Positions 11,554 to 64,000 of a DNA stretch of 64,000 nucleotides are shown here, in pieces. Where the stretch lies: contig CAKOSZ010000007.1 in NCBI GenBank assembly GCA_934119955.1, forward strand, positions 5,192 to 69,191. The letters run 5' to 3'. Positions within the stretch are counted from its first letter, which is position 1. Each line of letters opens with the position of its first letter. The notes beneath the pieces were generated by a model. That model saw only the letters and a program-made list of their open reading frames with translations. It searched no databases and was not told where the DNA came from. This stretch comes from an uncultured Bacilli bacterium. Lineage in GTDB: Bacteria > Bacillota_I > Bacilli_A > RF39 > UBA660. The position numbers and the translations under genes are program-made.

Positions 11554-11574
11554 ATATACGTGTTAGGAGGATGT

Positions 11575-34009: not shown

Positions 34010-35125
34010 ATGCTAAAAAAGATGGATAAATGTTTAGTTATATGTACTTTTATATTATTGGTAATTGGACTAGTTATGATTTTTTCAGCTAGCAATGTTA
34101 CTAGTTATATGAAATATTTAAAAAGTCCATATTACTATTTTCTAAAACAATCCATCTTTTTTGTTATTAGTTTAATTTTATCTTTTTTTATTTTAAAAAT
34201 TGATACTAAAAAATATCATTACATTAGTTTTCCTTTAATAATAATTATTATAACTCTTTTAGTAATAGTTTTATTTAATGGTAAAGTAAGTAACCAAGCA
34301 AGAAGTTGGTTTAGTATATTTGGAATATTTACTGTACAACCAAGTGAATTTGCTAAAATATTTACAATTATGTGGTTTGCATCTTATTACAGTATTAACA
34401 AAAATTGCTTGGATGTAAAAAAAGTAATATTTCCTCTAATTATTTCTGTTGGAATTGCTTTTTTAATTGCTTTACAACCAGACTTAGGAACAACTTTACT
34501 TTATTGTGGCTTAGTATTTTTTATGTTTTTAAGTTTACCGATAAGTAAAAAAATTAAAAGAAATAGTATTATAGTACTAATTGCTATTATCTGTATAGGC
34601 TTATTATTATTGTTAAATAATGGAGTTAAACTAGTATTTGAAAGACAAATTCAAAGATTTAACTTTTTAAATCCTTGTGAGAGAATATATAGTGATGGAA
34701 ATCAAGTTTGTAATGGGTATATTGCAATTAATAATGGTGGTTTATTTGGCAAAGGTCTTGGTAATAGTACTCAAAAGTATTTATATTTACCAGAAGCATA
34801 TACAGATTTTATATTTGCAATAGTAGTTGAAGAATTAGGATTAATTATCTCGGTTGTTATTTTGCTTCTAATGTTTTTAGTATTATGGCGAATATTTATA
34901 ATTGCTAAAAAGAGTACAACAACAAGAGGAATGCTTTTATGTTACGGTGTGTTTTTCTATATATTGTTGCATATAATTATAAATTTAGGTGGCCTTTTAG
35001 GATTAATTCCTTTAACTGGGGTACCACTTCCATTTTTAAGCTATGGAGGAAGTTATTTAATGTGCTTAGTTTCTAGTATTGCAATCGTTCTTAGAGTTGA
35101 TCTTGAAAATAAAAAAATTAAATGA
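34010..35125 (+). CDS. SEDS-family peptidoglycan polymerase (FtsW/RodA/SpoVE)
   Basis: 10-TM topology and the conserved C-terminal motif GLIPLTGVPLPFLSYGGSYL. Confidence 0.8.
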   Translation: MLKKMDKCLVICTFILLVIGLVMIFSASNVTSYMKYLKSPYYYFLKQSIFFVISLILSFFILKIDTKKYHYISFPLIIIIITLLVIVLFNGKVSNQARSWFSIFGIFTVQPSEFAKIFTIMWFASYYSINKNCLDVKKVIFPLIISVGIAFLIALQPDLGTTLLYCGLVFFMFLSLPISKKIKRNSIIVLIAIICIGLLLLLNNGVKLVFERQIQRFNFLNPCERIYSDGNQVCNGYIAINNGGLFGKGLGNSTQKYLYLPEAYTDFIFAIVVEELGLIISVVILLLMFLVLWRIFIIAKKSTTTRGMLLCYGVFFYILLHIIINLGGLLGLIPLTGVPLPFLSYGGSYLMCLVSSIAIVLRVDLENKKIK

Positions 35126-37794: not shown

Positions 37795-38428
37795 AAAAGA
37801 AGAGGCCATGCTTATAGTAGGGTCTCTCTTATTAATAATAGCTCTTATACTTTTAAATTACGATAAAATATTAGAAGTTAATAATGAAATCTACAATGAA
37901 ATTCAAGCAAATATATATAAAGAACAAATGAAAAATGATAATATATCAGTTAATATAGATGTAGACTATGTTGAAAAAGATAATTTAGAAGTACCAAAAC
38001 CTGAAAATAACAATTCTGTAAAATACCTTGCTTTTATTGAAATACCAAAAATTAATCTAAATCAAGGAATACTTCCCAAAACATCATATTATAATAATGT
38101 TAACTATCATGTAGAAGTATTAGATATTGCTGATTATCCTGATAAAATAAATGGTAATTTTATTCTAGCAGCCCACTCTGGTACTAGTAACATTGCTTAT
38201 TTTAAATATCTTTATAAATTAAATAAAGGTGATATTGCAAATATTATTTATAATAATAAAAAATATATTTATCAAATAACAAATATTTATACCCAAGAGA
38301 AAAAAGGAAGTTTGACATTATATAGAAATACATCTAAAACAACATTAACATTAATTACTTGTACCAAAAATGATAAAACAAGTCAAACTGTATATATTTT
38401 AGAACTTATTGGAGTAGAAACTTATTAA
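37763..38428 (+). CDS. sortase (class B-like)
   Basis: Catalytic TLITC cysteine motif, a His in LAAHSG and a downstream Arg. N-terminal signal anchor. An alternative start at ATG 37808 avoids the overlap with the adhesin gene. Confidence 0.7.
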   Translation: MVTMFTKKNIKKEEAMLIVGSLLLIIALILLNYDKILEVNNEIYNEIQANIYKEQMKNDNISVNIDVDYVEKDNLEVPKPENNNSVKYLAFIEIPKINLNQGILPKTSYYNNVNYHVEVLDIADYPDKINGNFILAAHSGTSNIAYFKYLYKLNKGDIANIIYNNKKYIYQITNIYTQEKKGSLTLYRNTSKTTLTLITCTKNDKTSQTVYILELIGVETY

Positions 38429-39323: not shown

Positions 39324-39428
39324 TGTTTACAATTTTAGACAAATTATGTTTGACTTAACAATTTTCTTTTGATATTATTGATAATGTGCGTAAAAATTGG
39401 TACACATATAAGAGGTGTAAATTTAATA

Positions 39429-40394
39429 ATGAAAACAGAAAATAAGTTAAGTTATCCCCTGTTTAGTAACTTAATTATTAGTTTTTTATCTTTAAATTTT
39501 CTTATTTTTAATAATTCAAGACAGTTAGTTTCAGTTAATTTAGATAGTAATAATTTAAAACCTATTTATGAAATGGTAACAAATAAAGAGAGTTTAGTGG
39601 AAAATATGACTATTACAGTTTCTCAAAAAGAAGTAATGAGTCAAAATACTTATAAGAATTATTATGTAAAACCAAGTTATAATAGTGTAACTGGTATGAA
39701 CTTAGTTAATTATGCTAAAAATTACATAGGACTTCCTTATGTTCCAGCAGGTTCTTCTTTGTCAACTGGAACAGATTGTAGTGGTTTTACTAGACTTATT
39801 TATATGGAATTTGGAATTCAACTTGGTAGAACAGTTAATAGTCAACTTTATAGTGGTTCTTATGTTTCCAAAGAAGATTTACAACCAGGTGATTTAGTCT
39901 TTTATGGATATTATCAAGGATATTCGAGTCATGTTGCCATTTATATAGGAGATGGTTTGATTATTCATGAATCTAATCCAAGTGATGGTGTTAAAATTAG
40001 TTCAGTTAATATAATGGTCTATCAAACTGCTAGAAGATTAATAACTTCAAATGTTAATGTATCAAAATCACTTGAAGAAACTAAAACAGAAGATAAAAAT
40101 GAAGAAGATATTAAAGATATTCAAGAAGTTAGTAGTGATATTAATAGTGATAATAATACAGAATTAGAAAATAAAGAAGAAACAATTACAGAAGTTGATG
40201 AGAAAATAAAAAATGATAAAAAACAAACAGAAAATAAACAGGATCATGATAATTTAATAGAAACACCTAATGAATCAGAAGAAGTAAAAGATAATAATCA
40301 AGATTTAAGTGATACAGAAGAAAGTAAAAATATTCAAGAAGAAAACACTCTACTTGAAAAAAATACACAATTAGAAGAAAATCTTGAAAACTAA
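39429..40394 (+). CDS. NlpC/P60-family cell-wall peptidase with an acidic C-terminal tail
   Basis: Catalytic triad context GTDCSGFTRLIY...HVAIYIGDGLIIHES. N-terminal signal/TM. The C-terminal ~110 aa are E/D/N/K-rich. Confidence 0.75.
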   Translation: MKTENKLSYPLFSNLIISFLSLNFLIFNNSRQLVSVNLDSNNLKPIYEMVTNKESLVENMTITVSQKEVMSQNTYKNYYVKPSYNSVTGMNLVNYAKNYIGLPYVPAGSSLSTGTDCSGFTRLIYMEFGIQLGRTVNSQLYSGSYVSKEDLQPGDLVFYGYYQGYSSHVAIYIGDGLIIHESNPSDGVKISSVNIMVYQTARRLITSNVNVSKSLEETKTEDKNEEDIKDIQEVSSDINSDNNTELENKEETITEVDEKIKNDKKQTENKQDHDNLIETPNESEEVKDNNQDLSDTEESKNIQEENTLLEKNTQLEENLEN

Positions 40395-43763: not shown

Positions 43764-44693
43764 TTGGGTATGTTAGAGTTAAAAACTTTAAAAGATCATA
43801 AAAATAATCCAGATGCTTTTATCTATATGGCTTATGATGATATTTTTAAACTTTTAGGAACTAAGAAACATATAAAATTAACAACTTATTTAATCAGTGC
43901 TCTATGTTCTTTAAATTACAAAGATTTAGTTAATAAAGTAATAGTTGCTGATGTTAAAAATAATTCGAGAATGATTGATACTAAACTTGAAAAAGATTTA
44001 TTGTATTTAGTTAATACTCCTAATAAATTTAAAATATCAATTGAAATGAATAGAATATCTAGTTTAAATAAAAATATCATAGATAGAAACTTAGCTTATC
44101 TTGCAGATGCTTATACAACTGGTATTCAAACTAAGGATAATTATAAAGATTTAATACCAACTATTCAATTTAATTTAAATATGTGTGATGTTAAAAAGCA
44201 AAAGCATGTTAAAAATTGTTATTTAGTTCAAGATGATAGTTTAAAATCATTAACAGATAAGTTAAAAATATATCATGTAAATATTTTAAAACTTTATAAA
44301 ATGTGGTATGATGAAAGTATCAAGAAAGAAGATTTATATTTTAAAAAGTTATGTTTTATGGGAGCCTTATTACTTGAAAATGAGTGGACAAAATTCTATG
44401 AATTATTAGATAATGCTCCAAGTGACTTTGATGATGAATTAAAAAATGAAGTAAAGGAGATGTTAGAGTATATGAACGATGATAGTTTATTAGTTGCAAG
44501 ATTTTATGATCCAGATAAAAGAAGAGAATTCTACATGGAAGGTTTTCGTGAAGAAGGACGGGAAGAAGGACGTAAGGAAGAAAGTTTTAAAATTGTTTTT
44601 AATATGTTAAAAAATAAATTTAAAATCAATGATATTATAAAAGTAACTGGATTATCCAAAGAAGAAATTATTAAACTTAAAGAGGAAAATTAA
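43764..44693 (+). CDS. Rpn/YhgA-like (PD-(D/E)XK family) recombination-promoting nuclease / putative transposase
   Basis: C-terminal EG-repeats FREEGREEGRKEESFKIVFNMLKNKFKINDIIKVTGLSKEEIIKLKEE are characteristic of the Rpn C-terminus. The N-terminal nuclease motifs are not clearly visible. Confidence 0.4.
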   Translation: MGMLELKTLKDHKNNPDAFIYMAYDDIFKLLGTKKHIKLTTYLISALCSLNYKDLVNKVIVADVKNNSRMIDTKLEKDLLYLVNTPNKFKISIEMNRISSLNKNIIDRNLAYLADAYTTGIQTKDNYKDLIPTIQFNLNMCDVKKQKHVKNCYLVQDDSLKSLTDKLKIYHVNILKLYKMWYDESIKKEDLYFKKLCFMGALLLENEWTKFYELLDNAPSDFDDELKNEVKEMLEYMNDDSLLVARFYDPDKRREFYMEGFREEGREEGRKEESFKIVFNMLKNKFKINDIIKVTGLSKEEIIKLKEEN

Positions 44694-49655: not shown

Positions 49656-52256
49656 GTGTTTATGTTAAAAAAAATATTAAGTTTATTAGTAGTGTTTTTT
49701 AGTTTTTTAGTAATTAATGTTAAGGCTGAAATTTATGATTTAAATAGTATTCCAAATAGATCTTATGTTATAGGAAAACATTTATATACAAGAGATTCCT
49801 TAGATGGAAATGCTTTTAATGGAGAATATCAGGGAGTACTTGAAACTAGGTGGTTAATATTTGGTTCTTCTTCTATTGAAAGTACTAATCTTTTAGATAT
49901 GATAGTTTATTATAAAAATCCAGAAGGAGTTTTTCTAGATGCAGCCAATGATTTAGTAATAGATGAAAATAAGTTACCAAAATATTTTGAAATAGAATAT
50001 TTAAATGGTAATAAAATAGAAAATAGTTTTAAAACAAGTATTGTACCTAATAAATTAACAGAAAACAATTATTTATCTCTTGCAACAAAAAGTGTTAATA
50101 TAGAAAAATATGCTGGTTATGATGTTTTTAAAAATTATATTGAAGATGATAATACTATTAATCGTGGTAATAGTAAATTAACTTTTAAAGTTGCAAAAGA
50201 CTTTATTGGTGATAAAGATAATTACTATGATATTACAATTAAATATTTTGATGCAGGACTTGGGACAATTCTTTTACAAGTATCAAATGACTATGATAAT
50301 ACAATTAATTATAGTAAAACTGGCTATGGTGGTTATGTAGAGGAGCCTTGGTGGACTTGGGGAAATGGATATTATTTTAAAAATATGAGTATATGTTTAA
50401 CTAATACTAATACTTGGAAAACTTATACTTTTAGAGTAACTGATACTTTTTTTGAAAAGAATATTGATAATTATCTTCATTTCTATTTTGGAACTAATAA
50501 TAAAAATACAAGTGGAGAAGTTATAAATATTAGAGAAGTAATAGTTACTAAAAAAGTTACTAAAATTTTATCTATTGATAAAAATACTAATAATAATGAA
50601 GCGGTTGTTGGTAATATATATACAGATAGTGATTTTGGTTTAGGATTTAAAGTTTTAAATATTTATGATGAGAATAAAACTTTTAATATTTCTTATAAAA
50701 TACTAGATGATGATGAAAAAACAGTAAGTGAAAAAAATCTTGGTCTTGTAACTATTCCTGCTAATAATCAGGAAATGTTTTACTTAGATAATTCTTTAAA
50801 ATATGGTGTATATAAATTAATTGTATCTGTTAATTATAATGGTATTGTTGAAAATGAGAAAATAGAATTTAGTAAAATGATAAAAGATTTAAGTAATCAA
50901 AAAAATGATTTTTTAGGTGTTTCTAGTCTTTTTGGTTATAGCACGTATTTTCCTGATTCAATTATTCGTGATACAAAAAATGTTTATCAAAAATTAGGAG
51001 TAAGCATAATTAGAAATGGAATAAATGGAAATTTTGTTGCTTCAAATAATAATACCTTAGCAAGTTACATTCCTTTATATGATATTTTAACAAATGAAGA
51101 GGAAGATATGCTTATGAATGTTTGGAATATTGACTCAAATGTTGAAGTTACAAGTGATGGTATTATTACAGATAGTAGTTTTGAAAAATTAAAAACAAGA
51201 ACAATTGAACTTTATAAAATGCTTGCTAATAAATATAAGGGTAAAATAAAATATTATGAAACTTTATGCGAATGGAATAGATTTAGTCCTAAAAATGCTA
51301 TTACTCCTGAACAATATGCTATACTTGTAATAGAAATTAGTAAAGCAGTTAAATCAATTGATAAAAATGCTAAGATAGTTGCTATGAATACAAATAAATT
51401 TCCTATTTATGATGATGCTTATTATGAAGATTATAATCTAGAACATGTAAATGATTATACAAATTATTTAGAAAATTCATGGTTAGTAAGAGCCTTAAAG
51501 ACTAGCATTGATATAGATTTTGACGGGGATGGAACAGTAGAAACTGTAAATGTCTGTGATGTAATAGATGCAATATCAATTCATCCTTATACTATGTCAG
51601 CCACTACTTCCCCAGAAACTAAAATCTCATTAATGAGTTTAACAAAAGAATTAAGAAAATTAATTCAGGATCATACTGATAAAAATATTCCTATCTGGTT
51701 TACTGAATTAGGTCATCCAACTCATGCTTTTGGAGCATCTTTAAAACTACAAGCCGCATTTCTTACAAGAACACTTGTTCTAAGTCAAGCAATGAACGAG
51801 ACAACAAACGTAGAAAAAGCAATTATTTATGAATTACAAAATCAAGGAGCATCTAATTTAAATAGTGAAGCAAATTATGGATTAGTAAATAATTTTAAAG
51901 ATAATAGTTCAAAACCATTTACAAGAGATATTAGTATGTCGGCTAAAAATAGTTATATTGCCATAAATATGTATAGTTATATTTTAAATAATGCTAAATA
52001 TCTTGCTAGTAACGAAAATACCTATGAAACTGATAATTATTTATGGTATAAATTTAAAACAAATGACAATAAAGAAGTAATTGTTACTTGGATAGATGAA
52101 AAAGAAAATATAAGTAAAAATATTAATTTAAATGTTAATATGGGAAAAATAACAATTTATGATATTTATGGAAATACCTTAAATTCATTTGTTAATAATA
52201 AAAATACTATTAATGTTGATGTTAGTTATGAACCAATTTATATTGTTACTACATAA
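49656..52256 (+). CDS. large secreted protein with a C-terminal clan GH-A-like (TIM-barrel glycoside hydrolase) domain
   Basis: Signal peptide. The N-terminal ~450 aa look like beta-rich accessory domains. The C-terminal region has a nucleophile-like motif (WFTELGHPTH) and a possible acid/base motif (CEWNRF). Weak. Confidence 0.4.
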   Translation: MFMLKKILSLLVVFFSFLVINVKAEIYDLNSIPNRSYVIGKHLYTRDSLDGNAFNGEYQGVLETRWLIFGSSSIESTNLLDMIVYYKNPEGVFLDAANDLVIDENKLPKYFEIEYLNGNKIENSFKTSIVPNKLTENNYLSLATKSVNIEKYAGYDVFKNYIEDDNTINRGNSKLTFKVAKDFIGDKDNYYDITIKYFDAGLGTILLQVSNDYDNTINYSKTGYGGYVEEPWWTWGNGYYFKNMSICLTNTNTWKTYTFRVTDTFFEKNIDNYLHFYFGTNNKNTSGEVINIREVIVTKKVTKILSIDKNTNNNEAVVGNIYTDSDFGLGFKVLNIYDENKTFNISYKILDDDEKTVSEKNLGLVTIPANNQEMFYLDNSLKYGVYKLIVSVNYNGIVENEKIEFSKMIKDLSNQKNDFLGVSSLFGYSTYFPDSIIRDTKNVYQKLGVSIIRNGINGNFVASNNNTLASYIPLYDILTNEEEDMLMNVWNIDSNVEVTSDGIITDSSFEKLKTRTIELYKMLANKYKGKIKYYETLCEWNRFSPKNAITPEQYAILVIEISKAVKSIDKNAKIVAMNTNKFPIYDDAYYEDYNLEHVNDYTNYLENSWLVRALKTSIDIDFDGDGTVETVNVCDVIDAISIHPYTMSATTSPETKISLMSLTKELRKLIQDHTDKNIPIWFTELGHPTHAFGASLKLQAAFLTRTLVLSQAMNETTNVEKAIIYELQNQGASNLNSEANYGLVNNFKDNSSKPFTRDISMSAKNSYIAINMYSYILNNAKYLASNENTYETDNYLWYKFKTNDNKEVIVTWIDEKENISKNINLNVNMGKITIYDIYGNTLNSFVNNKNTINVDVSYEPIYIVTT

Positions 52257-53375: not shown

Positions 53376-54035
53376 ATGAAAAGATTAAAGATAATATTAA
53401 TGATAGTTCTATTTTTTATAACTACAAATGTTTTTGCAATAGACAATTGTACAAATGATGAAATGAAAAGATTAAGAGAACTTGCTAATAATGTAAAAAT
53501 TAATTATGAATATACTGTTGATGATGAAATTATAGAAGAAGAAACAGTATATGTTCATTATAATATTAAAGTAATAAATTTAAGTGATGATTTAAAAATA
53601 TATTATAATGGAGAAGATAATAATTTAAGATTATATTCAAAAGAAGAAATAGAAAATATGGAGTTTTCATCAGGAACAACTCATAAATTTTATTTGTATT
53701 CTTATACTAATAATTTATGTACTGATGAATTAATAAAAACAATTTCAGTTAAATTCCCAGTTGTAAATTCTTATTATTACTTTAATAAAGAAAAGTGTTT
53801 GAACAATCAAGATTTTAAATATTGTAAAGAATTTTCTAATGAAGAAAATTATAGTTTTGAAGAAATTGATAAAATGTTTGATGATTATTTAAATAAGGGT
53901 AATTCAAATAATGGTAATCAAATTAATAAATATTTAACTAAATATATTTATTATATTATAGGAATAATAATTTTGATTTTAGTTATAGTGATTGTAATAA
54001 TTAAAGTCAAAAAAAATAAAAAAGAAGATATTTAG
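53376..54035 (+). CDS. Cys-rich secreted protein with a C-terminal TM anchor (module copy 1, small subunit)
   Basis: Signal peptide MKRLKIILMIVLFFITTNVFA, conserved Cys (CTN...LCT...KC...YC), C-terminal helix IIGIIILILVIVIVII and a KNKKEDI tail. Paralogue at 56544. Confidence 0.5.
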   Translation: MKRLKIILMIVLFFITTNVFAIDNCTNDEMKRLRELANNVKINYEYTVDDEIIEEETVYVHYNIKVINLSDDLKIYYNGEDNNLRLYSKEEIENMEFSSGTTHKFYLYSYTNNLCTDELIKTISVKFPVVNSYYYFNKEKCLNNQDFKYCKEFSNEENYSFEEIDKMFDDYLNKGNSNNGNQINKYLTKYIYYIIGIIILILVIVIVIIKVKKNKKEDI

Positions 54036-54043: not shown

Positions 54044-56470
54044 ATGAAAAAAGTATATAAAGTATTATTATTAACTTTGCTATTTTTTATATTTTCTCTT
54101 AATGGAAATGCTGATGAAGTAACTAATAAAAAAGGTGATTTAAGGTGTAATCCAGAAAATAAAACTTCTTGTGAGGAGATAAAAAATAGTAATGGAGAAG
54201 TTATTCAAGTAAATGTAGCAACTGATGTTATTAAAAATGATGGTGATATTCAAGTTATTAAACATGTAAAAAAAACTAATATACTAGGTGAATTAGAAAT
54301 ATGGTTTACTATAAAAGGAAAAAATATTGAAATTATTCAATCAGGTAAAGATGCATATGTCATTGTAGTTTTTGATACATCTTCAACTATGAAAAGTGGT
54401 TCTCAACTAGAAAGTGCTAAATCTGCTATTAAAACATTTAGCAAAGTGTTATATTCGAATAAACCAGAAGGAGTTAATTATTATTTAGCTGCTATTCAAT
54501 TCGCTGAATATTCAAAAATTATTAGAAATTTTGCAAATAAAGATTTTAGTGATATGAGTTTTTCTAGTAGAAGTAGTTTAGGTTCAAAATCTGAATTAGG
54601 TTATGCCTACCATGATGTATATAACTTATTAGCAAAAGTTCCTGTTGAAGATAAAAAATATGTAGTTTTATTTGGCGATGGAAGATATTATAATGGATAT
54701 AATTGTTCAGTTTATTCCCATAAAGGTAAAAATAATAAATATGATACTCACTGTGATGTTTTAGATGCAAATTATGCTAAAATTCGAGATAGTTATAAAG
54801 AATATATTAGTATTTATGGTATTCTTTATAGTGGTGGTAGTTTACATAATGTATTAGATAATAAAATAAATAAGAAAAAGACTGTTTGTTATGATAAATA
54901 TCGTGGCGATTGTGATAAAATGTTTATGCAAAAGTATACAGATACTTATCTTGATGCAAGAGAATGTAATAGTAAATATAGTAGTTGTAAAAAAGATCCG
55001 AATTACGAAGATTACTTTAAAGAAATTGCTAAAATAATTAATTCTGATAAAACTTATCCTGTAAATATATCGGCTAGTTTAGAAGATAGAATAGGTTCTT
55101 CATTTGATATTATAGGTTCTAGTGATAAAAGTAAAAAAATTACAATTAAAAATATAACTGAAAATGGAGTAGAAACAGAACACTTTAAAATAAAAATAAA
55201 TGATAATGCTCTTGATGGTTGGAATGATACTAACAATGGTTTTAATTTAACTTATGATAAAAAAGTAATAAGTAATAATAATAATCCTCAAATGTATTGG
55301 AAAGAAATGATTTGCACAGATAGTATAACTGATGAAAAAGAAAAAGTAATTAAATCATGTAGTGGTACAGAAAGTATAGATTTAGAAATAAAATCAAATT
55401 GTCAAAGTGAAAAGAAAATATATTATGATATATCATGTGATGAAAAAATAACTGCTGGTATTAAAATAAATAATTTAAAAGATGGGGTTAAGAAATTTAG
55501 TATAGATAAAGGTTTAGGTTTTCCTGCTAATTTAAACTTAAAAACTGATTTAGAATGTAATTACGTATTTTATAAAGGTTTATATGATAATGATTATAAT
55601 AAGTTAACTCTTGAAATTTCTAAGGAAACTGATGAGAAAATAATTCATAGTAAAACTAAAAAACTTAATGAAATGAAATCATATTTAGAAACTTATAATA
55701 GTTATTTAAATAATTTAAATGATTATAAAACTAATGTATTCTCAAATCAAGCAGCAACTTTAAAAGTTAAAGTTTTAGATAATTCCTATGATTATCAAGA
55801 TTTCATTAATTCAAAATTTAAAATAAATGAAGATAATTGTAAGGATACAGAAAACTATCAAGATGGATTTAAAGTTACAACGAAAACTTGTTCTTTAAAG
55901 ATGGAAAAAGATATGATTTTGACTGAAAAATGCTTGAATATGAAAGATGGAAGTGTTGAAAACTGTACTAATTCGAATAAACAAATAAAAGGAGGAAATA
56001 AATATTATACAAGCATAAATAAAAATTCAGGAAGTGTCTTTGTAGAAATTAATTCACTTGGATATGCCTCAGTTGTAAATAATAAATCTAATATAAGTAT
56101 TAAATTAGAAGACTGTGAATATGAAACAGGTAAATTATATAAAGATAAAATATCATTTAGACAAATAGAATTATCTGATCCTTTCTTAAAATCTTATACT
56201 AATTCAAAAAGAGAAATAGGTAAGAATTATCTAAATACCAAATATGACTTTGTAAGTATTATAAAACCAGATATTTGGTCTTTATCTACTAGTGACTATA
56301 AATTTTCATTAAGTAAAATAAATGTAAGTAATATAAGGCATGATACAAATAATTTAGGCATTTCATCTTATCTTGGAAGTGATTGTTATATTAGTAATAC
56401 TAATAAATATGTTTGTAAATTCTTTGAGGATAGTGAAAAAAACAATTTCTTTACAAATACATCAAAATAA
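54044..56470 (+). CDS. large secreted Cys-rich VWA-domain protein (module copy 1)
   Basis: Signal peptide, N-terminal conserved block KKGDLRCNPENKTSCEEIKNSNGEVIQ...IQVIKHVKKT, a VWA MIDAS-like motif (YVIVVFDTSSTMK), more than 20 Cys and no C-terminal anchor. Paralogue at 57200. Confidence 0.55.
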   Translation: MKKVYKVLLLTLLFFIFSLNGNADEVTNKKGDLRCNPENKTSCEEIKNSNGEVIQVNVATDVIKNDGDIQVIKHVKKTNILGELEIWFTIKGKNIEIIQSGKDAYVIVVFDTSSTMKSGSQLESAKSAIKTFSKVLYSNKPEGVNYYLAAIQFAEYSKIIRNFANKDFSDMSFSSRSSLGSKSELGYAYHDVYNLLAKVPVEDKKYVVLFGDGRYYNGYNCSVYSHKGKNNKYDTHCDVLDANYAKIRDSYKEYISIYGILYSGGSLHNVLDNKINKKKTVCYDKYRGDCDKMFMQKYTDTYLDARECNSKYSSCKKDPNYEDYFKEIAKIINSDKTYPVNISASLEDRIGSSFDIIGSSDKSKKITIKNITENGVETEHFKIKINDNALDGWNDTNNGFNLTYDKKVISNNNNPQMYWKEMICTDSITDEKEKVIKSCSGTESIDLEIKSNCQSEKKIYYDISCDEKITAGIKINNLKDGVKKFSIDKGLGFPANLNLKTDLECNYVFYKGLYDNDYNKLTLEISKETDEKIIHSKTKKLNEMKSYLETYNSYLNNLNDYKTNVFSNQAATLKVKVLDNSYDYQDFINSKFKINEDNCKDTENYQDGFKVTTKTCSLKMEKDMILTEKCLNMKDGSVENCTNSNKQIKGGNKYYTSINKNSGSVFVEINSLGYASVVNNKSNISIKLEDCEYETGKLYKDKISFRQIELSDPFLKSYTNSKREIGKNYLNTKYDFVSIIKPDIWSLSTSDYKFSLSKINVSNIRHDTNNLGISSYLGSDCYISNTNKYVCKFFEDSEKNNFFTNTSK

Positions 56471-56543: not shown

Positions 56544-57191
56544 ATGAAGTATAAAAGTATTTTATTGATTGGTTTATTTTTTATAACCACAAATGTTTTT
56601 GCAATTAATGATTGTACAAATTCTGAGATGAAAAGATTAAATGAACTTGCTAATAATGTTAAAATAACTTATGATTATGTTATTGATGAAGAAATAGAAA
56701 AAAGAACAATAGCAGGATTTTTTTATGTACAAATTAATAATTTAAGTGATGATTTACAAATATATCTTAAAGATATGTCAGGTAATTTAAAATTATATTC
56801 AAAGGATGAAATAGAAGAAAATGATTTTAATTTTAATACAACAGAAAAATTTTATATTTATTCATATACTGATAATTTATGTACTAATAAATTAATAAAA
56901 ACAATTACAATTAAATTTCCAAGTGTAAATCCTTATTACTATTACAATAAAGAAAAATGTATAGAACATACTGATTTTAAATATTGTCAAGAATTTTTAA
57001 ATCATGATTTAGATCTTGATGAAATAGATGAGATGTATAATGAATACATAAATAAAAATAATATTAATGATCAAAAAACAAAAACATTTAATAAAAATTA
57101 TATATATATAATAACTGCAAGTTTTTTAATAATATGTATAATTATATTTATTGTAATTAAAATAAGAAAAAATAAAAAAGAAGATATTTAG
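56544..57191 (+). CDS. Cys-rich secreted protein with a C-terminal TM anchor (module copy 2, small subunit)
   Basis: Paralogue of 53376-54035 with the same Cys spacing, the same C-terminal anchor and the same KNKKEDI tail. RBS AAGGAG before the ATG at 56544. Confidence 0.5.
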   Translation: MKYKSILLIGLFFITTNVFAINDCTNSEMKRLNELANNVKITYDYVIDEEIEKRTIAGFFYVQINNLSDDLQIYLKDMSGNLKLYSKDEIEENDFNFNTTEKFYIYSYTDNLCTNKLIKTITIKFPSVNPYYYYNKEKCIEHTDFKYCQEFLNHDLDLDEIDEMYNEYINKNNINDQKTKTFNKNYIYIITASFLIICIIIFIVIKIRKNKKEDI

Positions 57192-57199: not shown

Positions 57200-59620
57200 A
57201 TGAAAAAGATATTTACATTAGTAATATTGTTATTAATTATAGTTCCTTATTCAGTTGGTGCTAGTAAAAAAGGTGATTTAAGATGTAATCCTGATAATAA
57301 AACTTCATGTAAAGAAATAAAAAACTCTAATGGAGAAGTAATTCAAACAGATGTAACAAGTGGAAGTTTAGATAAAGAAGGCGATATTCAAATTATCAAA
57401 CATGTTAAAAAAACTGAAACAATTGGAGAATTTAAGGTGTGGTTTACAATTAAAGGAAAAGGAATAAAGTCTCAAAACAAGTATAAAAAAACTAAGATTG
57501 TTTTAATATTAGATATGTCACATACAGTAGAAGATTCTATTAGGGAAATAACATCAGCAACTAAAAAATTTTATAATTCCTTTAAAGATATTGATGAAAT
57601 ACAAATTTCTATTATCCAGTTTGCTACTAATGCCAAAAAAATTAATATAAATAATGGAAATTTTGAATTATGTGGATATAATGATACAAAAAGTGGATGT
57701 AAATTAAAAACAAAGTCTCATGTTGAAAAAGCCTTGAAAATTGCTAATAATGAATTAAGTGGTGAAGATCAAAAATATATTGTTCTTTTAGGAGATGGGC
57801 AATATTGGTCAGAAAATGACACAGAAACAGATGATGCGGTTAATTGGTTTAAAAATTTAAACAACAATGGAGTTAAATTTTTTATGATTCAATATGAGGG
57901 GGGAGAAAGTGAATATTCTGAAATGAGAAAATGCGCCAAAGGTTCAAAGGCAAGTAAAAGGCGTTTTGATTTAGGTTGTAAAAGTGGTTATTCTAATAAA
58001 AATCCAGTTCAATATAATGGTGCCTACATATCTACATATATAAAGCCTGTAAAATGGTGGTGTAAATATGATATAGGAAGCGGTTCTTTTCGTGATAGAT
58101 ATTGGTGCACTAATAATAGTGTAATAAATAGTTATGAAGAAGTTTTCAATAGTGTAGTTAATGAAATTAAAGAAAATGTTAAAAATGATAATGCTGTTGA
58201 TGCAACATTAAGCGATAGATTAGGTGAAGAATTTACTATTTTGGATACTACTTTAAAAGAAAAAAATATGAAGATAGATAAAATAACTGAAAGTGGTATA
58301 GATACACCTGCGTTTAATGTTGTAATTGATTCTATGGCTGAATCTGATAAATGGCATGACACTAACAATGGTTTTACTTTATCATTGCCAAATGACAATA
58401 ACATTGGTTGTAACGATAATCCCGAAGTATATTGGATTCAAACTAAATTAAGTTGTGAAAATGCAATTAATGAACCAGTTGTTAATGAAATTAAGGGTTG
58501 TAGTGGCCAATCTCCATCAATCAATAATACAATAACTACTAATTGTGGGGCTAATGATTTACATTATACAATTACGTGTTTAGAAGGATATCAAGATAAT
58601 GGAAAAGACATACCAGGTTATACTGCTAATATAAATATAAATAATATAACAAAAAATGAAAATAAATTTAATATAAAATCTGGTCTTGGCTTTCCAATAA
58701 ATATTTCTTTAAATACAAATATTTATTGTAAATATGAATTTAATGAAACTAATTTTAACAAAGATTATCAATATGTTTTAAATAGTATAAATATTACGAA
58801 GGATTCTAAAAAAAGATATAGTTTAGAACAACTTAAAATTAATTTAGAAAATGAATTAATTTCTTATCAAGAAAAATTAAAAAATTTAGAAGATTATCAG
58901 AATAGATTTAATGAACAAACAGCAACTTTAAAAGTTAATTATAATGAAAAAATAACTGATATTCAACAATTTAAAAATAAAAGCGTGAGTGATAGTGAAA
59001 TTAAATGTGTAACTACTAAAAAAAGTACTGTAAATTCCCAAGAAATTGAATCAAAAGAGTGTTATTTATCAATGAATAAGAAAATGGAATTAGAAAGTGT
59101 TTGCCTAGATATAAAAACAGGAAAAGTTGAAAAATGTACTTCATCTAATACACAGTTGTCAGGAGGAAATAAGTATTATACTAGTTTAACTGAAAAAGAG
59201 GGCTCAGTTTTTGTAAATATTTCTGATGCAGGATATGATAATAATTTAACAATTAATTTAACGGGGTGTACTACATCAAGTGACAAAACAGGTTTTAATG
59301 TAGTACTTAGACAAATAGAATTATCTGATCCTTTCTTAAAATCTTATACTAATTCAAAAAGAGAAATAGGTAAGAATTATCTAAATACCAAATATGACTT
59401 TGTAAGTATTATAAAACCAGATATTTGGTCTTTATCTACTGGTGACTATAAATTTTCATTAAGTAAAATAAATGTAAGTAATATAAGGCATGATACAGAT
59501 AATTTAGGTGTTTCATCTTATCTTGGAAGTGATTGTTATATTAATAATTTGAATAAATATGTTTGCAATTTCTTTGAGGATAGTGAAAAAAACAATTTCT
59601 TTACAAATATAGAAAAATAA
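57200..59620 (+). CDS. large secreted Cys-rich VWA-domain protein (module copy 2)
   Basis: Paralogue of 54044-56470. N-terminal KKGDLRCNPDNKTSCKEIKNSNGEVIQ, MIDAS-like IVLILDMSHTVED, and a C-terminal ~105 aa almost identical to copy 1. Confidence 0.55.
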   Translation: MKKIFTLVILLLIIVPYSVGASKKGDLRCNPDNKTSCKEIKNSNGEVIQTDVTSGSLDKEGDIQIIKHVKKTETIGEFKVWFTIKGKGIKSQNKYKKTKIVLILDMSHTVEDSIREITSATKKFYNSFKDIDEIQISIIQFATNAKKININNGNFELCGYNDTKSGCKLKTKSHVEKALKIANNELSGEDQKYIVLLGDGQYWSENDTETDDAVNWFKNLNNNGVKFFMIQYEGGESEYSEMRKCAKGSKASKRRFDLGCKSGYSNKNPVQYNGAYISTYIKPVKWWCKYDIGSGSFRDRYWCTNNSVINSYEEVFNSVVNEIKENVKNDNAVDATLSDRLGEEFTILDTTLKEKNMKIDKITESGIDTPAFNVVIDSMAESDKWHDTNNGFTLSLPNDNNIGCNDNPEVYWIQTKLSCENAINEPVVNEIKGCSGQSPSINNTITTNCGANDLHYTITCLEGYQDNGKDIPGYTANININNITKNENKFNIKSGLGFPINISLNTNIYCKYEFNETNFNKDYQYVLNSINITKDSKKRYSLEQLKINLENELISYQEKLKNLEDYQNRFNEQTATLKVNYNEKITDIQQFKNKSVSDSEIKCVTTKKSTVNSQEIESKECYLSMNKKMELESVCLDIKTGKVEKCTSSNTQLSGGNKYYTSLTEKEGSVFVNISDAGYDNNLTINLTGCTTSSDKTGFNVVLRQIELSDPFLKSYTNSKREIGKNYLNTKYDFVSIIKPDIWSLSTGDYKFSLSKINVSNIRHDTDNLGVSSYLGSDCYINNLNKYVCNFFEDSEKNNFFTNIEK

Positions 59621-59632
59621 AAATATATTTTC

Positions 59633-59661
59633 TTGATTAATATATTAAGTCGTTGTATAAT
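59633..59661 (+). promoter_or_regulatory. sigma-A promoter of the Tad-like operon
   Basis: TTGATT, 17 nt, then TG-TATAAT (extended -10), followed by TAGGAGG. Confidence 0.5.
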
Positions 59662-59681
59662 AAAAATATAAATAATAGGAG

Positions 59682-60239
59682 GTGGCTTTGAAATCAGCGA
59701 TGTGGATGGTGTTTATTTTTGTTCTTGGAGTTATTGGAATAGTTTTAATTAATGTTTTTGGTAATATTACAACAACTAATCAACAAGATTATACTTTAAT
59801 TAAAAATACAGTTGAAGCAGCAATGTATGATTCAATTGATGTAGCATCATATCGATCAGGTTTTTATCTTTGTACTAATGCCTCAGCAAGTGATAAAATA
59901 ACTTTTACTTCTAAAAATGATTATGCAATTCTTTTAAATAATGATATTACTCAAAGTAATTTAGACAATTATAAAAAATGTGATTTTTTAGTAGGAGAAG
60001 TTAAGTTAAAAGCCGATGTATTTGCTGAAAGTTTTTTAAGAAGATTTTCAAGTGATGTGAACAATAACAAAAGTTATCAAATAACTATTCAAGAAGTAAT
60101 AGAATATCCACCTAAGGTAAGTGTTAGAATTGACACATATAATTCATATAATAATAAAATTGAAACTTCACAAGAGTTTCAAACAGGGGATTTTAAAATT
60201 CGTAATCAAATAGATGCAATATTTGAAGAAAAAAATTAG
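59682..60239 (+). CDS. N-terminally membrane-anchored protein (possible TadE/TadG-class pilus accessory protein)
   Basis: Single N-terminal TM (WMVFIFVLGVIGIVLINVFG) with the rest extracytoplasmic. It is the first gene of the Tad-like operon. No G/xxxxE prepilin motif. The start is ambiguous among GTG 59682, TTG 59688 and ATG 59700. Confidence 0.3.
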   Translation: MALKSAMWMVFIFVLGVIGIVLINVFGNITTTNQQDYTLIKNTVEAAMYDSIDVASYRSGFYLCTNASASDKITFTSKNDYAILLNNDITQSNLDNYKKCDFLVGEVKLKADVFAESFLRRFSSDVNNNKSYQITIQEVIEYPPKVSVRIDTYNSYNNKIETSQEFQTGDFKIRNQIDAIFEEKN

Positions 60240-60257
60240 AAATAAAAAGGAGAGTTT

Positions 60258-61052
60258 ATGAAAAAATTAAAACAAATTTTATCAAACAAAAATACAGTTA
60301 CATTTATAGCAGCCATATTAATTGTGCTAGTTCTATATATATTCTATAATTGGAGAGTTAGTCAAGCAACTAGTCCAATTCGTATACCTTATGCTAATCA
60401 AACCATTAATCCAAGAACAAAGATTACAAATGAAATGATATCATACTTAGAAATGCCATCAACTGCTGTTAAAGGTAATGTTGTAACAAATGCTAATAAT
60501 ATTGTTGGAATGTACACTAATGTAAACGGAGTAATTCCAGCAGGAAGTTTATTTTATAGTAGTCAAATAGTAAGACAAGAAGAACTACCAGACTCATTTC
60601 TTTTAAATATTCAAGATGGATATATTCCTTATAACTTTGATGTTAATATGAAATCAACTTATGGTAATTCAATTTATCCAGGTAATTATGTTGATGTTTA
60701 TTTTAAAGGAGTTCAAAATGGTAAATTAATGATTGGTAAACTTCTTGAAAATGTTAAAGTATTATCAGTTAAAGATGCAAGTGGTCGTCCTGTATTTGAA
60801 ACAAGTGACAATGATAGAGTACCTAGTCAAATTATATTTGCTGTAACACCTGAAATACATTTATTACTTAGAAAAGCAGAGTATTTAAGTGCTGTTAAAA
60901 TAATTATTGTACCTAATAATACATCTTTAAAACTTGAAGATGGTGAAGAAGATGTAGCAGTTACTGTTAAAAGCGAAACAATTAAAAACTTTATTGAAGA
61001 ACAATCAGTATACGTTGATGAAACTGAATCAATTGATGATACTAATAATTAG
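60258..61052 (+). CDS. cpaB: Flp-pilus assembly protein CpaB/RcpC-like (SAF-domain)
   Basis: N-terminal TM (VTFIAAILIVLVLYIF), then a SAF-like segment (IPYANQTINPRTKITNEMISYLEMP). Size and position match CpaB immediately upstream of the CpaF ATPase. Confidence 0.5.
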   Translation: MKKLKQILSNKNTVTFIAAILIVLVLYIFYNWRVSQATSPIRIPYANQTINPRTKITNEMISYLEMPSTAVKGNVVTNANNIVGMYTNVNGVIPAGSLFYSSQIVRQEELPDSFLLNIQDGYIPYNFDVNMKSTYGNSIYPGNYVDVYFKGVQNGKLMIGKLLENVKVLSVKDASGRPVFETSDNDRVPSQIIFAVTPEIHLLLRKAEYLSAVKIIIVPNNTSLKLEDGEEDVAVTVKSETIKNFIEEQSVYVDETESIDDTNN

Positions 61053-61060
61053 AGGTTACA

Positions 61061-62512
61061 ATGAATCAAGGTATAAATGCATATGATTTAACTTCAAATA
61101 ATCAAGAAAAAACTAATACCGAGATAAATGCTGATTTATTTTCTAGTATTGACTTTGGTCCTTTAAAACCATTTTTAGATGATGATAATATAACTGATAT
61201 TTCATATAGTAATAATGGTCAAGTATGGTTAAAATCACTTGATAGAGGAGTTTACCGAGTAGAAAATACTGGAATTAATAACGAATTAATAGAAAAAATT
61301 GCTTTTCAGTGTGCTAATATCATGGGTAAAACGTTTAACATGGCAAGTCCTCTTTTAGATAGTGAATCAACTGAACTTCGTATGAATTTTATCCACGATT
61401 CAATTGCTAGAAATGGAATTGCTGCTGTGTTTAGAAAAACACCAGCCAAGATTAGATTGAAGAAAGAAAAAATAATAAGTGATAAATACATAACCTTAGG
61501 AATACATGACTTTTTAATCGAATGTGTTCATGGTCATTGTAATATAATTGTATCCGGTGAAACTGGATCTGGTAAAACTGAGCTTGTTAAATACTTAGCA
61601 AGCCATACTAAGGAAAATGAAAAAATTATAACTATTGAAGATACTTTGGAACTACACTTAGATGTAATATTTCCACATCGAGATATTGTTGCTATGAAAA
61701 CTAATAATATTGCTTCATATAGTGACGTTTTAATAGGATGTATGAGGCAAAACCCTAAATGGATATTATTATCAGAAGTAAGATCCGCAGAAGCAGTTAC
61801 AGCAGTTCGTAACTCTATCTCATCAGGACACAATATTTTGTCAACAATTCATGCTGATAAAGCATCAAGTATTCCGTATCGTTTGTATAGTTTGCTTGAA
61901 AGCAACATTGATGTTGAACAATTTATGACAACTATTTATAGATATATTCAATTAGGTGTTCATGTAAGAGCAAGATATGATAAAGTAACAGGTAAATTTA
62001 TGAGAGAAGTTTGTGAAGTATGCGAATTTCATGTAAATAAAGATAATAAACCAGAGAGTAATATAATATATAGAAAAAATATTGATGGAACGGAAATACT
62101 TAATTCTCCAAGTCCATATCTAATAGATTATTTAGAAGGACAAGGAATTGATTTAGCAAATAAAAACTTTGATAATTTAAAAATAGATTTACCATTTAAT
62201 AATCAAGTTGATACTACTAGTCAAGGTTCAAATAATACAAGTGTTAATACTAATATTAATACTACTAATGTTAATCAAAATATGAATAATACTTTAACTA
62301 ATAATGTAACTAATACGGTTAGTAATGATGTAGTTAATAATACAAATAATACAGTTAATAATCATAATATTAATAATAATGTTAATAATTCGACTGATAC
62401 ATTACTAGTTGATGAACCAACTTTAAGTACTCAAAGTAATGTAGCAACTAATGTGGTAAATCAAAATAATATAAATAATAATCCAATAATTGATAATGAT
62501 GAAATTTTATAG
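61061..62512 (+). CDS. tadA: CpaF/TadA-family type IV pilus (Tad) secretion ATPase with an Asn/Thr-rich C-terminal extension
   Basis: Walker A VSGETGSGKTEL, Walker B/Asp box ILLSEVRSAEA, and His box GHNILSTIHA. The last ~110 aa are low-complexity N/T/V. Confidence 0.8.
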   Translation: MNQGINAYDLTSNNQEKTNTEINADLFSSIDFGPLKPFLDDDNITDISYSNNGQVWLKSLDRGVYRVENTGINNELIEKIAFQCANIMGKTFNMASPLLDSESTELRMNFIHDSIARNGIAAVFRKTPAKIRLKKEKIISDKYITLGIHDFLIECVHGHCNIIVSGETGSGKTELVKYLASHTKENEKIITIEDTLELHLDVIFPHRDIVAMKTNNIASYSDVLIGCMRQNPKWILLSEVRSAEAVTAVRNSISSGHNILSTIHADKASSIPYRLYSLLESNIDVEQFMTTIYRYIQLGVHVRARYDKVTGKFMREVCEVCEFHVNKDNKPESNIIYRKNIDGTEILNSPSPYLIDYLEGQGIDLANKNFDNLKIDLPFNNQVDTTSQGSNNTSVNTNINTTNVNQNMNNTLTNNVTNTVSNDVVNNTNNTVNNHNINNNVNNSTDTLLVDEPTLSTQSNVATNVVNQNNINNNPIIDNDEIL

Positions 62513-62523
62513 GGAGGTGTGAG

Positions 62524-63420
62524 ATGGAATTTATAATAATACTTTTTATTGTATTCTTTGTTGTTTTATATCGAAAAAGCAATGGTGAATCTTTGTATAA
62601 ATTTGTAACAACTAGTATAGGTAATGTCTATGATAAATATGCTCCCTATTCATTTAAAAATATAAGAGAAAGATGTAAAGAAATGGGACTTGAATATACT
62701 AAAAAACAGTATACTGTTCAAGTAATAGTATTTACTTTAATTGCCTTTATTATATCTTATTTATATTTTTATAATGTAGTAGTTGCTTTCTTTTATGTTG
62801 TGTTAGTAGATGCTTTTATACCATATCTTGCATATTTAAGGTGTAAAAGATTATATAGTGAATTTATTTTTGAACAAGTTCAAGTATATGTAACAAATAC
62901 AATAATGGAATTTCAAACAACTCAAAGTTTTGTTAAAGCCTTAGAAGGTGTATATGAGTCAGGTGTATTAGAAGAACCACTAAAAACAGATGTAAAAGTT
63001 ATGATTGATCTTGCTTATCATAATGGTGATGTAGGTGAATCAATTGATTATATGAATAGTAAGTATGACTTTTATATGACAAGAAATATGCATCAATTAT
63101 TCTTGCAAGTTACAAGAGAAGGTGCACATGATACAGTTGAAGTATTAGATAATATGCTTTTAGATGTTGACCAATTAGTAGAAGGTGTTTATCAAGATAG
63201 AATGAATAGAAGTGCCTTTCATCAAGCATTTATTAGATATGGATTACTATTATATTTAATGGTAATGCTTGTACAATGGTTGATTGGGAAAGAAACCTAT
63301 ATCGAAATGGTAAACTCGAACATAATTCTTCAAATAGGACTTCATATTGTAATACTATTTAATAGTTATTTCCTATTATCAGGAGAAAAATATTATAATG
63401 AGAATGTGGGGGCTGAATAA
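62524..63420 (+). CDS. tadB: TadB-like inner-membrane platform protein (T2SS-F domain)
   Basis: Polytopic, with a GspF-like cytoplasmic domain between TM helices. Translationally coupled (TAATG) to the next gene. Confidence 0.5.
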   Translation: MEFIIILFIVFFVVLYRKSNGESLYKFVTTSIGNVYDKYAPYSFKNIRERCKEMGLEYTKKQYTVQVIVFTLIAFIISYLYFYNVVVAFFYVVLVDAFIPYLAYLRCKRLYSEFIFEQVQVYVTNTIMEFQTTQSFVKALEGVYESGVLEEPLKTDVKVMIDLAYHNGDVGESIDYMNSKYDFYMTRNMHQLFLQVTREGAHDTVEVLDNMLLDVDQLVEGVYQDRMNRSAFHQAFIRYGLLLYLMVMLVQWLIGKETYIEMVNSNIILQIGLHIVILFNSYFLLSGEKYYNENVGAE

Positions 63421-64000
63421 TGGAATTTGCAATTGTTGTTTTAATTATGATTTTTGCTTTAACCTATGGAGGAGCAATTAATACTAAAAAATTATATGAA
63501 GATAATGAAAAGTTCTTTGCTATGCTAAAAGAAAAGGACTATGATTTTTTGGTAAAATCAAAGTATAGGGGAGAGGTTGATCCAAATGTTCTTTTTGAAA
63601 AAAGAATTAAACAATTAACAATAGCAGTTGTTGCTATTCTTGCAATCTTGTTATTTAATTTTAGCTGGATTAATTTAATAATTGGTATTATAATAGTAAT
63701 CGTTATTTACAAAAACCAATATAGTAGTTTAAAAAGTTATTACAAAAAACATTTAACTGAGATAGATCAAACTTTACCATACTATTTAAAAAGTATTGAA
63801 ATCCTTGCTCAACATTATACAATACCAGTTGCAATTTCTAGATCAATTGAAACTGCTCCAACCATGTTTAAAGAAGGATTAAGAGAAATGGTTAGAAAAA
63901 TAGACGCTGGGGATTCTTCAATTGAACCATATATTGCTTTTGCCGAAGAGTATCCTGTTCGTGATTCTTTAAGAATGATGCGTTTATTGTATCGTTTAAG
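63420..64000 (+). CDS. tadC: TadC-like inner-membrane platform protein (partial, runs off window end)
   Basis: N-terminal TM (FAIVVLIMIFALTY), a second TM, then a T2SS-F-like cytoplasmic domain. The ORF is open to 64000. Confidence 0.45.
   Translation, partial: MEFAIVVLIMIFALTYGGAINTKKLYEDNEKFFAMLKEKDYDFLVKSKYRGEVDPNVLFEKRIKQLTIAVVAILAILLFNFSWINLIIGIIIVIVIYKNQYSSLKSYYKKHLTEIDQTLPYYLKSIEILAQHYTIPVAISRSIETAPTMFKEGLREMVRKIDAGDSSIEPYIAFAEEYPVRDSLRMMRLLYRL

Follow-up and report, generated by a model that had tools for sequence, protein, structure and literature searches.

Five plus-strand open reading frames (ORFs), here called A to E, occupy the last part, from 59.6 kb to the end, of the 64,000-nucleotide (nt) window of contig CAKOSZ010000007.1, the window being the whole stretch of DNA that was analysed. 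They are probably the first five genes of an operon of about 11 kb that encodes a type IV filament machine of monoderm bacteria, Tad-like (type IVc-like) but highly divergent. The operon is chromosomal and belongs to an uncultured gut lineage of 'Bacilli' with a very low G+C content, apparently RF39. The window is chromosomal DNA of about 24% G+C with tRNA clusters and housekeeping genes, and the flanks of the operon and of a type IV secretion system (T4SS) encoded in the same window are formed by the housekeeping genes frr, ppdK, mutL, tgt and ftsW. A five-gene Tad-like assembly operon had been proposed here from the letters of the DNA (the original prediction), and five ORFs were found at this place, with matches to DUF5411, RcpC and T2SSE. 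The gaps between them are 18, 8, 11 and −1 nt, and the window ends inside gene E. The features of the operon within the window are listed below (aa, amino acids).

59633..59661, plus strand: promoter-like site TTGATT-17-TATAAT in the 61-nt gap 5' of gene A, plausible by position only
59688..60239 (or from 59682), plus strand: gene A, DUF5411 protein (Pfam DUF5411, 9.8e-35)
60258..61052, plus strand: gene B, CpaB/RcpC-like protein, N-anchored, with SAF and RcpC domains (Pfam RcpC, 34.7 bits; cut-off 28.8)
61061..62155 (whole gene to 62512), plus strand: gene C, core of a hexameric secretion-superfamily ATPase of the CpaF/VirB11/FlaI class (T2SSE, 6e-27)
62156..62512, plus strand: tail of gene C beyond the conserved core, a 118-aa N/T/V-rich low-complexity linker with the end DNDEIL
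62524..63420, plus strand: gene D, putative TadB-type polytopic platform protein, divergent T2SSF (profile-profile match to TadB)
63420..64000 and beyond, plus strand: gene E, putative TadC-type platform protein, the first 193 of its 261 aa lying in the window

The promoter that was said to head the operon is present as a site, yet such sites are no commoner here than in shuffled sequence: promoter-like matches occur in the AT-rich window at chance frequency (98 observed, 100.8 expected).

The operon was compared with its counterparts in the 80 closest of at least 582 species genomes matching the ATPase. These relatives are gut metagenome-assembled 'Bacilli', e.g., Acholeplasma sp. CAG:878, Clostridium sp. 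CAG:302 and Firmicutes bacterium CAG:321. The gene order from A to K, of which F to K lie past the window edge, is kept in about 80 species-level relatives, and the median identity among them is 74% for C, 61% for D, 53% for E, 45% for F, 43% for B, 36% for H and about 30% for A and G. This gradient from C down to the parts predicted to be exposed fits a conserved cytoplasmic motor with fast-evolving exposed components.

The motor, the platform and the first two genes

The ATPase C carries the Walker A motif GETGSGKT and is 72–92% identical among the 80 related genomes. Its NCBIfam scores were all far under the family cut-offs, the top one being that of the VirB11 model TIGR02788 with 104.5 bits against a cut-off of 249.95.

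The two genes after the ATPase had been called TadB and TadC. This naming holds by profile-profile comparison only, as neither D nor E has a direct sequence match in Pfam, NCBIfam or the PDB; moreover, the profiles of D, E and H (the latter described below) found no PDB sequence at E-values up to 10. None of the 45 members of the E family, each scanned individually, had a Pfam match, one homologue search with the profile of D yielded close relatives without annotation and nothing else, and tblastn of D against plasmids found no match. An exhaustive representative search gave 310 relatives in 1.84 billion proteins, mostly fragments, and the full-length distant relatives from that search had no T2SSF Pfam match.

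A bridge to known proteins was provided by a Priestia plasmid. The D family profile matches one of its proteins, named 'type II secretion system F family protein' by NCBI, at 1.4e-15, and the E profile matches the product of the next gene on the same plasmid at 1.3e-18; the T2SSF-named protein in turn reaches 3.4e-5 with Pfam T2SSF, just under the cut-off. The comparison of family profiles with single canonical Tad proteins by hhalign failed and succeeded only when the D and E profiles had been broadened with distant relatives and set against TadB and TadC reference alignments from eight Tad loci of proteobacterial and actinobacterial plasmids. In this comparison, broadened D against the reference TadB (8 sequences) scored 94.3% (E 1e-7, 212 columns) and broadened E against the TadB and TadC reference 87.7% (E 3e-6, 166 columns), while TadB against TadC as a positive control scored 93.8% (E 1.8e-7, 139 columns) and three unrelated families as negative controls scored at most 0.4%. 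Because these scores match the control and because of the transitive link through the Priestia T2SSF protein, we accept D and E as predicted divergent platform proteins of the TadB/TadC type, i.e., two separate T2SSF-type proteins encoded after the ATPase. The stop of D and the start of E have 1 nt in common; at full length (261 aa), E is found in the conspecific contig L092.

Gene B supplies the CpaB/RcpC component of Tad systems. The second gene had been described as a CpaB-like SAF-domain protein, and the scan with hidden Markov models agreed with this, with RcpC above its cut-off and SAF weak (a weak Pfam match, and TIGR03177 at 8e-12, under its cut-off). The comparison with the Ralstonia CpaB by hhalign gave 78%, and the B family profile matches plasmid SAF proteins of Bacillus and Priestia at 5e-47 and 7e-44, respectively.

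The product of gene A starts with only a few hydrophilic residues, MKSAMW; a single hydrophobic helix comes next, and then a globular domain. From this architecture it appears to be an N-anchored pilin-like accessory protein; in most relatives the N-terminus of the family reads MKESxWG. Its TTG codon at 59688 lies 5 nt after a GGAGG sequence and is the likely true start, because GGAGG overlaps the alternative GTG at 59682 and because gene callers give A 183 aa in the contigs of sister strains of the same species.

Genes past the window edge

The exact D protein was found in four human gut contigs. They are 96.3% identical in nucleotides to window positions 59307–64000, and because of this and the identical D they are judged to belong to the same species as the window. 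After E these contigs carry F (61 aa), G (140 aa), H (334 aa), I, J and K, and then ppdK. The last three operon genes were located as follows.

L092 13475-14656 (just past the window end) and L001 14715-15966: genes I, J and K, three tandem divergent two-helix paralogues with weak T4SS_pilin/VirB2 resemblance

F begins with MKEASGELSMTLIVIIAAGVILAIF and G with MREAVGGSILFYIILGFLAVYIVF. The two have in common the N-terminus M[KR][ED][AS]xG followed by about 22 hydrophobic residues, present in 37 and 60 family members, respectively, and are otherwise unrelated. An ultrashort leader that ends in Gly directly before a hydrophobic helix is a signature of type IV pilin-like proteins, and the leader shared by F and G suggests common processing. 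F is of the size of Flp and stands at the Flp position; it reads MKEA[ST]G/E[LV][NS]MT, with Glu at +1, no Glu at +5 and no Tyr at +6. Judged by these features, F is a candidate major pilin and G, with its F-type MKEAxG leader, a candidate minor-pilin-like protein.

The structure model of H is confident (predicted local distance difference test, pLDDT, 80) and shows two alpha/beta domains. Among the top Foldseek matches only TadZ (3fkq) covers both of them, and no sequence-level match of H was found in the searches. The P-loop, G-x-K-N-V-T-x-x-A-G-A-T-T, is without the lysine of GK[ST], as are the P-loops of the Ralstonia TadZ (GARPGVGTTT) and of its Streptomyces counterpart. H is thus modelled as a two-domain TadZ-like ParA/MinD protein with an atypical P-loop.

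J and K weakly resemble the pilin-like and membrane proteins Mbov_0395 and Mbov_0396 of the Mycoplasma integrative and conjugative element (ICE), and genes of the I/J/K type keep their place beside the operon also in relatives whose T4SS core has been relocated. In some relatives the I/J/K domain is the C-terminus of proteins of 350–420 aa. That I, J and K might be peptidases was considered and rejected in view of the two helices and the weak VirB2/T4SS_pilin resemblance.

The original prediction had described the locus as lacking a Flp pilin, TadZ/CpaE and a TadV peptidase. Two of these three parts exist in the species, because the conspecific contigs carry F and H past base 64000; their apparent absence is mainly an effect of the window edge, and they were also hidden by divergence. 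The pilin-like F lies directly downstream, though without the Flp motif, and so does the TadZ-like H. TadV was not found in the window, as the original prediction stated, nor in the 80 related loci. The case foreseen as overturning the prediction, a canonical flp-tadV-tadZ set just downstream, therefore applies in part: flp-like and tadZ-like genes are there, but neither is canonical and no tadV was found. The idea of a non-canonical fibre has fared better: the 6-residue MKEAxG leader of the pilin candidate, with Glu at +1 and without the G/xxxxEY motif, supports the view that the filament built would be non-canonical.

Two plasmid proteins bear on the peptidase question. Priestia (L081 4518-5036) and B. 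thuringiensis (L091 5549-6100) plasmids encode polytopic proteins of 172 and 183 aa, respectively, a few kb upstream of the corresponding module. They share an N-terminal T-D and a 'SPGDTKM' motif and match each other at 1.7e-11 (phmmer), with no match in Pfam or NCBIfam. Read from the two Asp motifs, they look like a small TadV-type aspartic peptidase.

The tail of the ATPase

An Asn/Thr/Val-rich tail of about 110 aa had been noticed on the ATPase, and it is confirmed here as 118 aa past the core, with 34% N, 14% T and 11% V. It had been regarded as unusual for such proteins. Among the relatives variable tails are common, with a length of 7–441 aa (median about 55) and a composition biased towards N, Q, S, T, P and V. 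The tail as a unique feature of this ATPase was accordingly rejected. Among conspecific strains C is 477, 479 or 483 aa long owing to indels in the tail. Because the length ranges so widely among relatives and conspecific strains differ by indels, the tail is best described as a predicted fast-evolving low-complexity linker. The strain-specific low-complexity expansion that the original prediction had named as a possible objection to itself is thus what was found, though the end peptide is conserved, IIDNDEIL being retained in all these strains. Likewise, 31 of the 69 tails of at least 20 aa end in an acidic-hydrophobic peptide (such as DEIL, EEFL, ETLI or ESLF), with 2.5 expected and at most 12 in 1000 shuffles. 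The conserved end suggests a docking motif at the tip of a disordered linker.

Variable surface-protein cassettes upstream of the operon

Directly 5' of gene A lie two cassettes, each with a U and a V gene.

53376..54035, plus strand: U1, first half of variable cassette 1, 219 aa, with a Sec-type signal, a C-terminal membrane anchor and a basic tail
54044..56470, plus strand: V1, 808-aa secreted surface protein and candidate adhesin (weak VWA_2 match, 1.2e-4, below the cut-off)
56544..57191, plus strand: U2, paralogue of U1 in variable cassette 2 (56% identity to U1)
57200..59620, plus strand: V2, 806-aa paralogue of V1 (41% identity to V1), with no Pfam match of its own

The U proteins thus have a signal peptide and a C-terminal anchor, and the V proteins a signal peptide only. 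Between V1 and V2, roughly the first 100 and the last 125 residues are almost the same, and the middle parts diverge. The cassettes are reshuffled between strains: cassette 1 of the window is cassette 2 of L092 (L092 1028-7115), whose cassette 1 is different. The pattern looks like cassette-type adhesin variation. Across the lineage V is too variable for detection by BLAST, and U-like genes persist 5' of the operon in most related loci, at the place of the adhesin gene (Tie) in conjugation operons of the pLS20 type. We regard U and V as surface adhesins, variable and exported by Sec, that have a membrane-anchored partner. Of the duplicated von Willebrand factor type A (VWA) modules that had been reported upstream of the operon, the duplication is real, while the VWA match is below threshold and limited to V1 in the window; the V counterparts in L001 and L092 match PF00092 VWA.

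The type IV secretion system in the same window

The original prediction had missed that the operon is linked to a conjugation-type T4SS lying elsewhere in the window. The genes of this T4SS, which form a complete monoderm core, are as follows.

21901-24093, plus strand: VirB6-like protein
24127-24450, plus strand: PrgI/VirB3-like protein
24425-25033 and 25030-26817, plus strand: VirB4, split in two ORFs
26827-29397, plus strand: 856-aa protein with a papain-like Peptidase_C39_2 domain
29394-30089, plus strand: LppM-like protein
30112-32463, plus strand: VirD4 of the CD1115 family (NCBIfam, 298.7 bits; cut-off 250)

Linked VirB4, VirB6 and VirD4 genes are thus present in the window at 21.9–32.5 kb, and in 34 of the 50 related loci with sufficient downstream sequence they are contiguous with the operon, the VirB6-like gene lying at most 6 kb from H. 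In distant relatives the operon is directly followed by VirB2-like, VirB6-like and PrgI-like genes and by VirB4 split into about 185 and about 595 aa. Because the split recurs in these distant relatives, the split VirB4 is not a pseudogene. The VirB4 of the window is 72% identical to that of the related locus L040; among the named relatives of the split VirB4, the best is Mbov_0397, an ATPase of the Mycoplasma ICE. The scanned ORFs of the window and flanks included no recognisable relaxase or integrase, and with housekeeping genes on the flanks of the operon and the T4SS, the setting does not look like that of a conjugative element.

The neighbourhood of the T4SS contains further genes. A protein with a cadherin-like domain is encoded beside it (32567-33994), followed by ftsW (34010-35125) and by a SpaA-type pilin with a thioester domain (35185-37794), so that ftsW stands between these two genes. 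A sortase (37763-38428) and an NlpC/P60 hydrolase (39369-40394) are also found near the T4SS. On its other side, a sigma-factor-like gene (18988-19680) precedes the cluster, and just 5' of that gene lies a match to the Rfam 'PGK RNA' motif (18772-18863; 58.2 bits, above the gathering score).

Related systems

The operon was compared with Tad/Flp (type IVc) systems such as Caulobacter Cpa, Aggregatibacter Tad and actinobacterial plasmid loci. They are alike in the monoderm gene order (SAF/CpaB, ATPase, TadB, TadC, short pilin, TadE-like or minor pilins), in the RcpC-family protein and the two separate T2SSF-type platform proteins, and in the two domains and the lysine-less P-loop of the TadZ-like protein. 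However, besides the leader of the pilin and the missing TadV, the operon differs in the divergence of its TadB/C, TadZ and pilin counterparts, which is too high for Pfam and NCBIfam, in the place of the TadZ-like gene after the pilins and not before the ATPase, and in the extra DUF5411 protein and U/V cassettes.

Among plasmid genes, C is best matched by those of the 'CpaF/VirB11 family' in Priestia, Enterococcus and Bacillus, and B homologues were found on 365 plasmids, 358 of them from Bacillus. On the Priestia and B. thuringiensis plasmids the order is large surface protein, DUF5411-like, SAF, ParA-like, ATPase, T2SSF-like, second membrane protein, small protein and DUF4320. The family profiles match the proteins of these plasmids at 5e-47 (B), 1.5e-43 (C), 1.9e-15 (D) and 4e-13 (E), and more weakly at 1.3e-5 (H) and 4e-3 to 6e-7 (A). 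Compared with these plasmid modules, the ParA-like gene is displaced in the chromosomal operon, the MKEAxG leader is specific to its lineage, and the SPGDTKM candidate peptidase of the plasmids was not found. The conjugative plasmid of E. faecium carries a reduced module, followed by TrbC/VirB2, VirD4 (CD1115), a VirB6-like protein of the pLS20_p028 family and DUF5592; of its proteins only C is strongly matched, and E weakly.

The same succession is seen around the gene called VirB11 in pLS20 (genes 34–41; PMC8557374) and pAW63 (coding sequences 19–26; PMC1196294), where the neighbours are listed as unknown. The correspondence is one of gene order and size only, taken from the published gene tables. 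The succession common to the operon and to these blocks of the pLS20/pAW63/pXO2 type consists of a large surface protein, a small N-anchored protein, the ATPase and two polytopic proteins of about 250–300 aa, and then a DUF4320-like protein of about 120–140 aa and single-helix proteins of 50–90 aa; the linkage to VirB2-like, VirD4 (CD1115), VirB6-like and VirB4 genes is also alike. Unlike the pLS20, pAW63 and Bacillus plasmid modules, the present one is chromosomal and kept across the whole lineage, with no relaxase or integrase among the ORFs scanned.

An operon that contains CpaF, PilC/GspF and DUF5411 and is labelled 'secretion-related' has been predicted for Roseburia, Ruminococcus and Eubacterium (PMC9523054, Miller et al. 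2022). As far as its description allows comparison, that operon of gut Firmicutes, known from gene-context prediction, has 8–9 genes and shares the CpaF, PilC/GspF-type and DUF5411 proteins, while an internalin-like protein there replaces U/V. Patescibacteria have chromosomal, relaxase-poor T4SSs with arrays of VirB2-like pilins (PMC12102498; review PMC12857230). They resemble the present system as uncultured monoderms with reduced genomes, a chromosomal MPF-FATA-like T4SS, tandem divergent VirB2-like genes and no evident relaxase; they differ in phylum and in that a Tad-like ATPase and platform module is attached here. According to the same 2025 review, Gram-positive T4SSs are universally without VirB11 homologues and, Patescibacteria excepted, without VirB2 pilins (PMC12857230). 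No paper was found that reads the pLS20/pAW63 'VirB11' block as a Tad-like filament module, and the literature search on RF39 with pili or type IV secretion gave nothing relevant. The operon belongs to a widespread, experimentally untouched Firmicute module.

Proposed mechanism and alternative explanations

In the filament machine proposed here, C would drive or turn the D/E platform, which would polymerise F into a short pilus or pseudopilus. A and G would prime the F fibre, B would serve as a wall-side scaffold of the assembly, and H would position or license it. The tail of C may act as a flexible tether whose C-terminal acidic-hydrophobic peptide docks on a partner, conceivably the TadZ-like H. 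The fibre would cross the wall and present, or cooperate with, the variable Sec-exported U and V proteins, and the resulting cell–cell contact would serve the neighbouring T4SS (VirB4, VirB6, VirD4).

Several observations weigh against this interpretation. No filament has been reported for any member of the module family. PDB sequences of three ATPase classes match C about equally well: CpaF is the best at 1e-18, and FlaI at 1e-17 and VirB11 at 3e-16 come close to it. The structure model of D is poor (pLDDT 63.6) and its fold search uninformative. F has no G/xxxxEY motif and no Flp Pfam match, and hhalign against 7 Flp sequences gave 4%. Neither A nor G matches TadE, and the similarity of G to DUF4320 is weak. 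Neither the 64-kb window nor the 80 related loci (at most 10 kb on either side, up to 21 kb) yielded an A24 prepilin peptidase in a scan for GxGDxK-type motifs and in phmmer searches with the Priestia candidate. Finally, about 33 kb separate the operon from the T4SS in this genome, and their coupling rests on gene linkage.

The main rival, which we consider unlikely, is that the operon is an ordinary Gram-positive Tad operon for a stand-alone adhesion pilus that binds mucus, host cells or bacteria, its linkage to the T4SS being a historical accident. This would suit its place between frr and ppdK, 33 kb from the T4SS, as well as the Priestia and B. thuringiensis modules, which have no T4SS genes in the 22–25 kb around them, and the Clostridia DUF5411/CpaF/PilC operon, described without mention of a T4SS (PMC9523054). 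It agrees poorly with the T4SS core that directly follows the operon in the 34 of 50 related loci, with the VirB2-like genes that stay with the operon even where the core has moved away, and with the presence of the same block inside the conjugation operons of pLS20, pAW63 and the E. faecium plasmid. It was also asked whether the machine might be of the pseudopilus type and push the U/V (VWA) proteins through the cell wall, as the original prediction had suggested. The cassettes always lie directly 5' of the operon, and the conserved termini of V1 and V2 might serve in recognition or docking; however, the ordinary Sec signals on U and V, together with U's own anchor, mean that membrane export needs no special machine, and Tie, the adhesin that takes this place in pLS20, is described in terms of adhesion and not as a secretion substrate. 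A secretion role is thus very unlikely.

A further alternative, which we regard as highly improbable, is that C is a true VirB11 and energises the T4SS channel. D to G would then be membrane subunits peculiar to the T4SS, and a type IV filament would not be formed. VirB11 is the top NCBIfam model for C, and the pLS20 and pAW63 literature gives the homologue this name, but the score is far under the cut-off of the family model, PDB matches to CpaF and FlaI are as good as those to VirB11 or better, and D and E match TadB and TadC. The CpaB-like and TadZ-like genes are moreover Tad accessories and not parts of a T4SS. VirB11 proteins are not known to have T2SSF platform partners.

Other features of the window

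Side observations were made elsewhere in the window. A twelve-gene tRNA cluster on the plus strand (6789-8200) is the source of a local rise in G+C content. A 382-aa protein (11560-12708) is mostly of Lys/Asn-rich low complexity, with a hydrophobic C-terminal part. The sole mobile-element-type gene recognised among the window ORFs scanned is a transposase-like gene of the PD-(D/E)XK family (43764-44693). Between a yqeH-like GTPase gene and frr, an 866-aa secreted protein is encoded (49656-52256); its gene is not at that place in the relative L001, and a similar 864-aa gene is present in L095.

Biological meaning of the Tad-like operon

The conserved ATPase with fast-evolving exposed parts and adhesins points to a cell-contact organelle central to a genome-reduced lineage of the human and animal gut. 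The ATPase of the CpaF/VirB11 class is linked here to TadB/TadC platform, pilin-like, CpaB-like, TadZ-like and VirB2-like genes and to a monoderm T4SS. The main interest of the operon is its tie to a conjugation-type T4SS retained on the chromosome of such a lineage. A bolder reading, which we hold to be less likely than not and give a clearly lower confidence than the Tad-like operon itself, is that this whole gut lineage has fixed on its chromosome a conjugation-type T4SS, with split VirB4, VirD4, VirB6-like protein and a VirB2-like array, joined to a Tad-type filament motor. If this is true, the 'VirB11' of Firmicute conjugation would drive a pilus, with a TadB/TadC platform and pilins of its own, and monoderm T4SSs of this class would have a partner-finding pilus. 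If the module builds a filament, it would also explain the unknown gene block of pLS20 (36–41) and its pAW63/pXO2 equivalents and provide conjugation in Gram-positive bacteria with a pilus. The combined machine would be a vertically inherited organelle for cell–cell contact, DNA exchange or nutrient acquisition, which might be indispensable, in parallel with the essential T4SS and pilin array of Patescibacteria.

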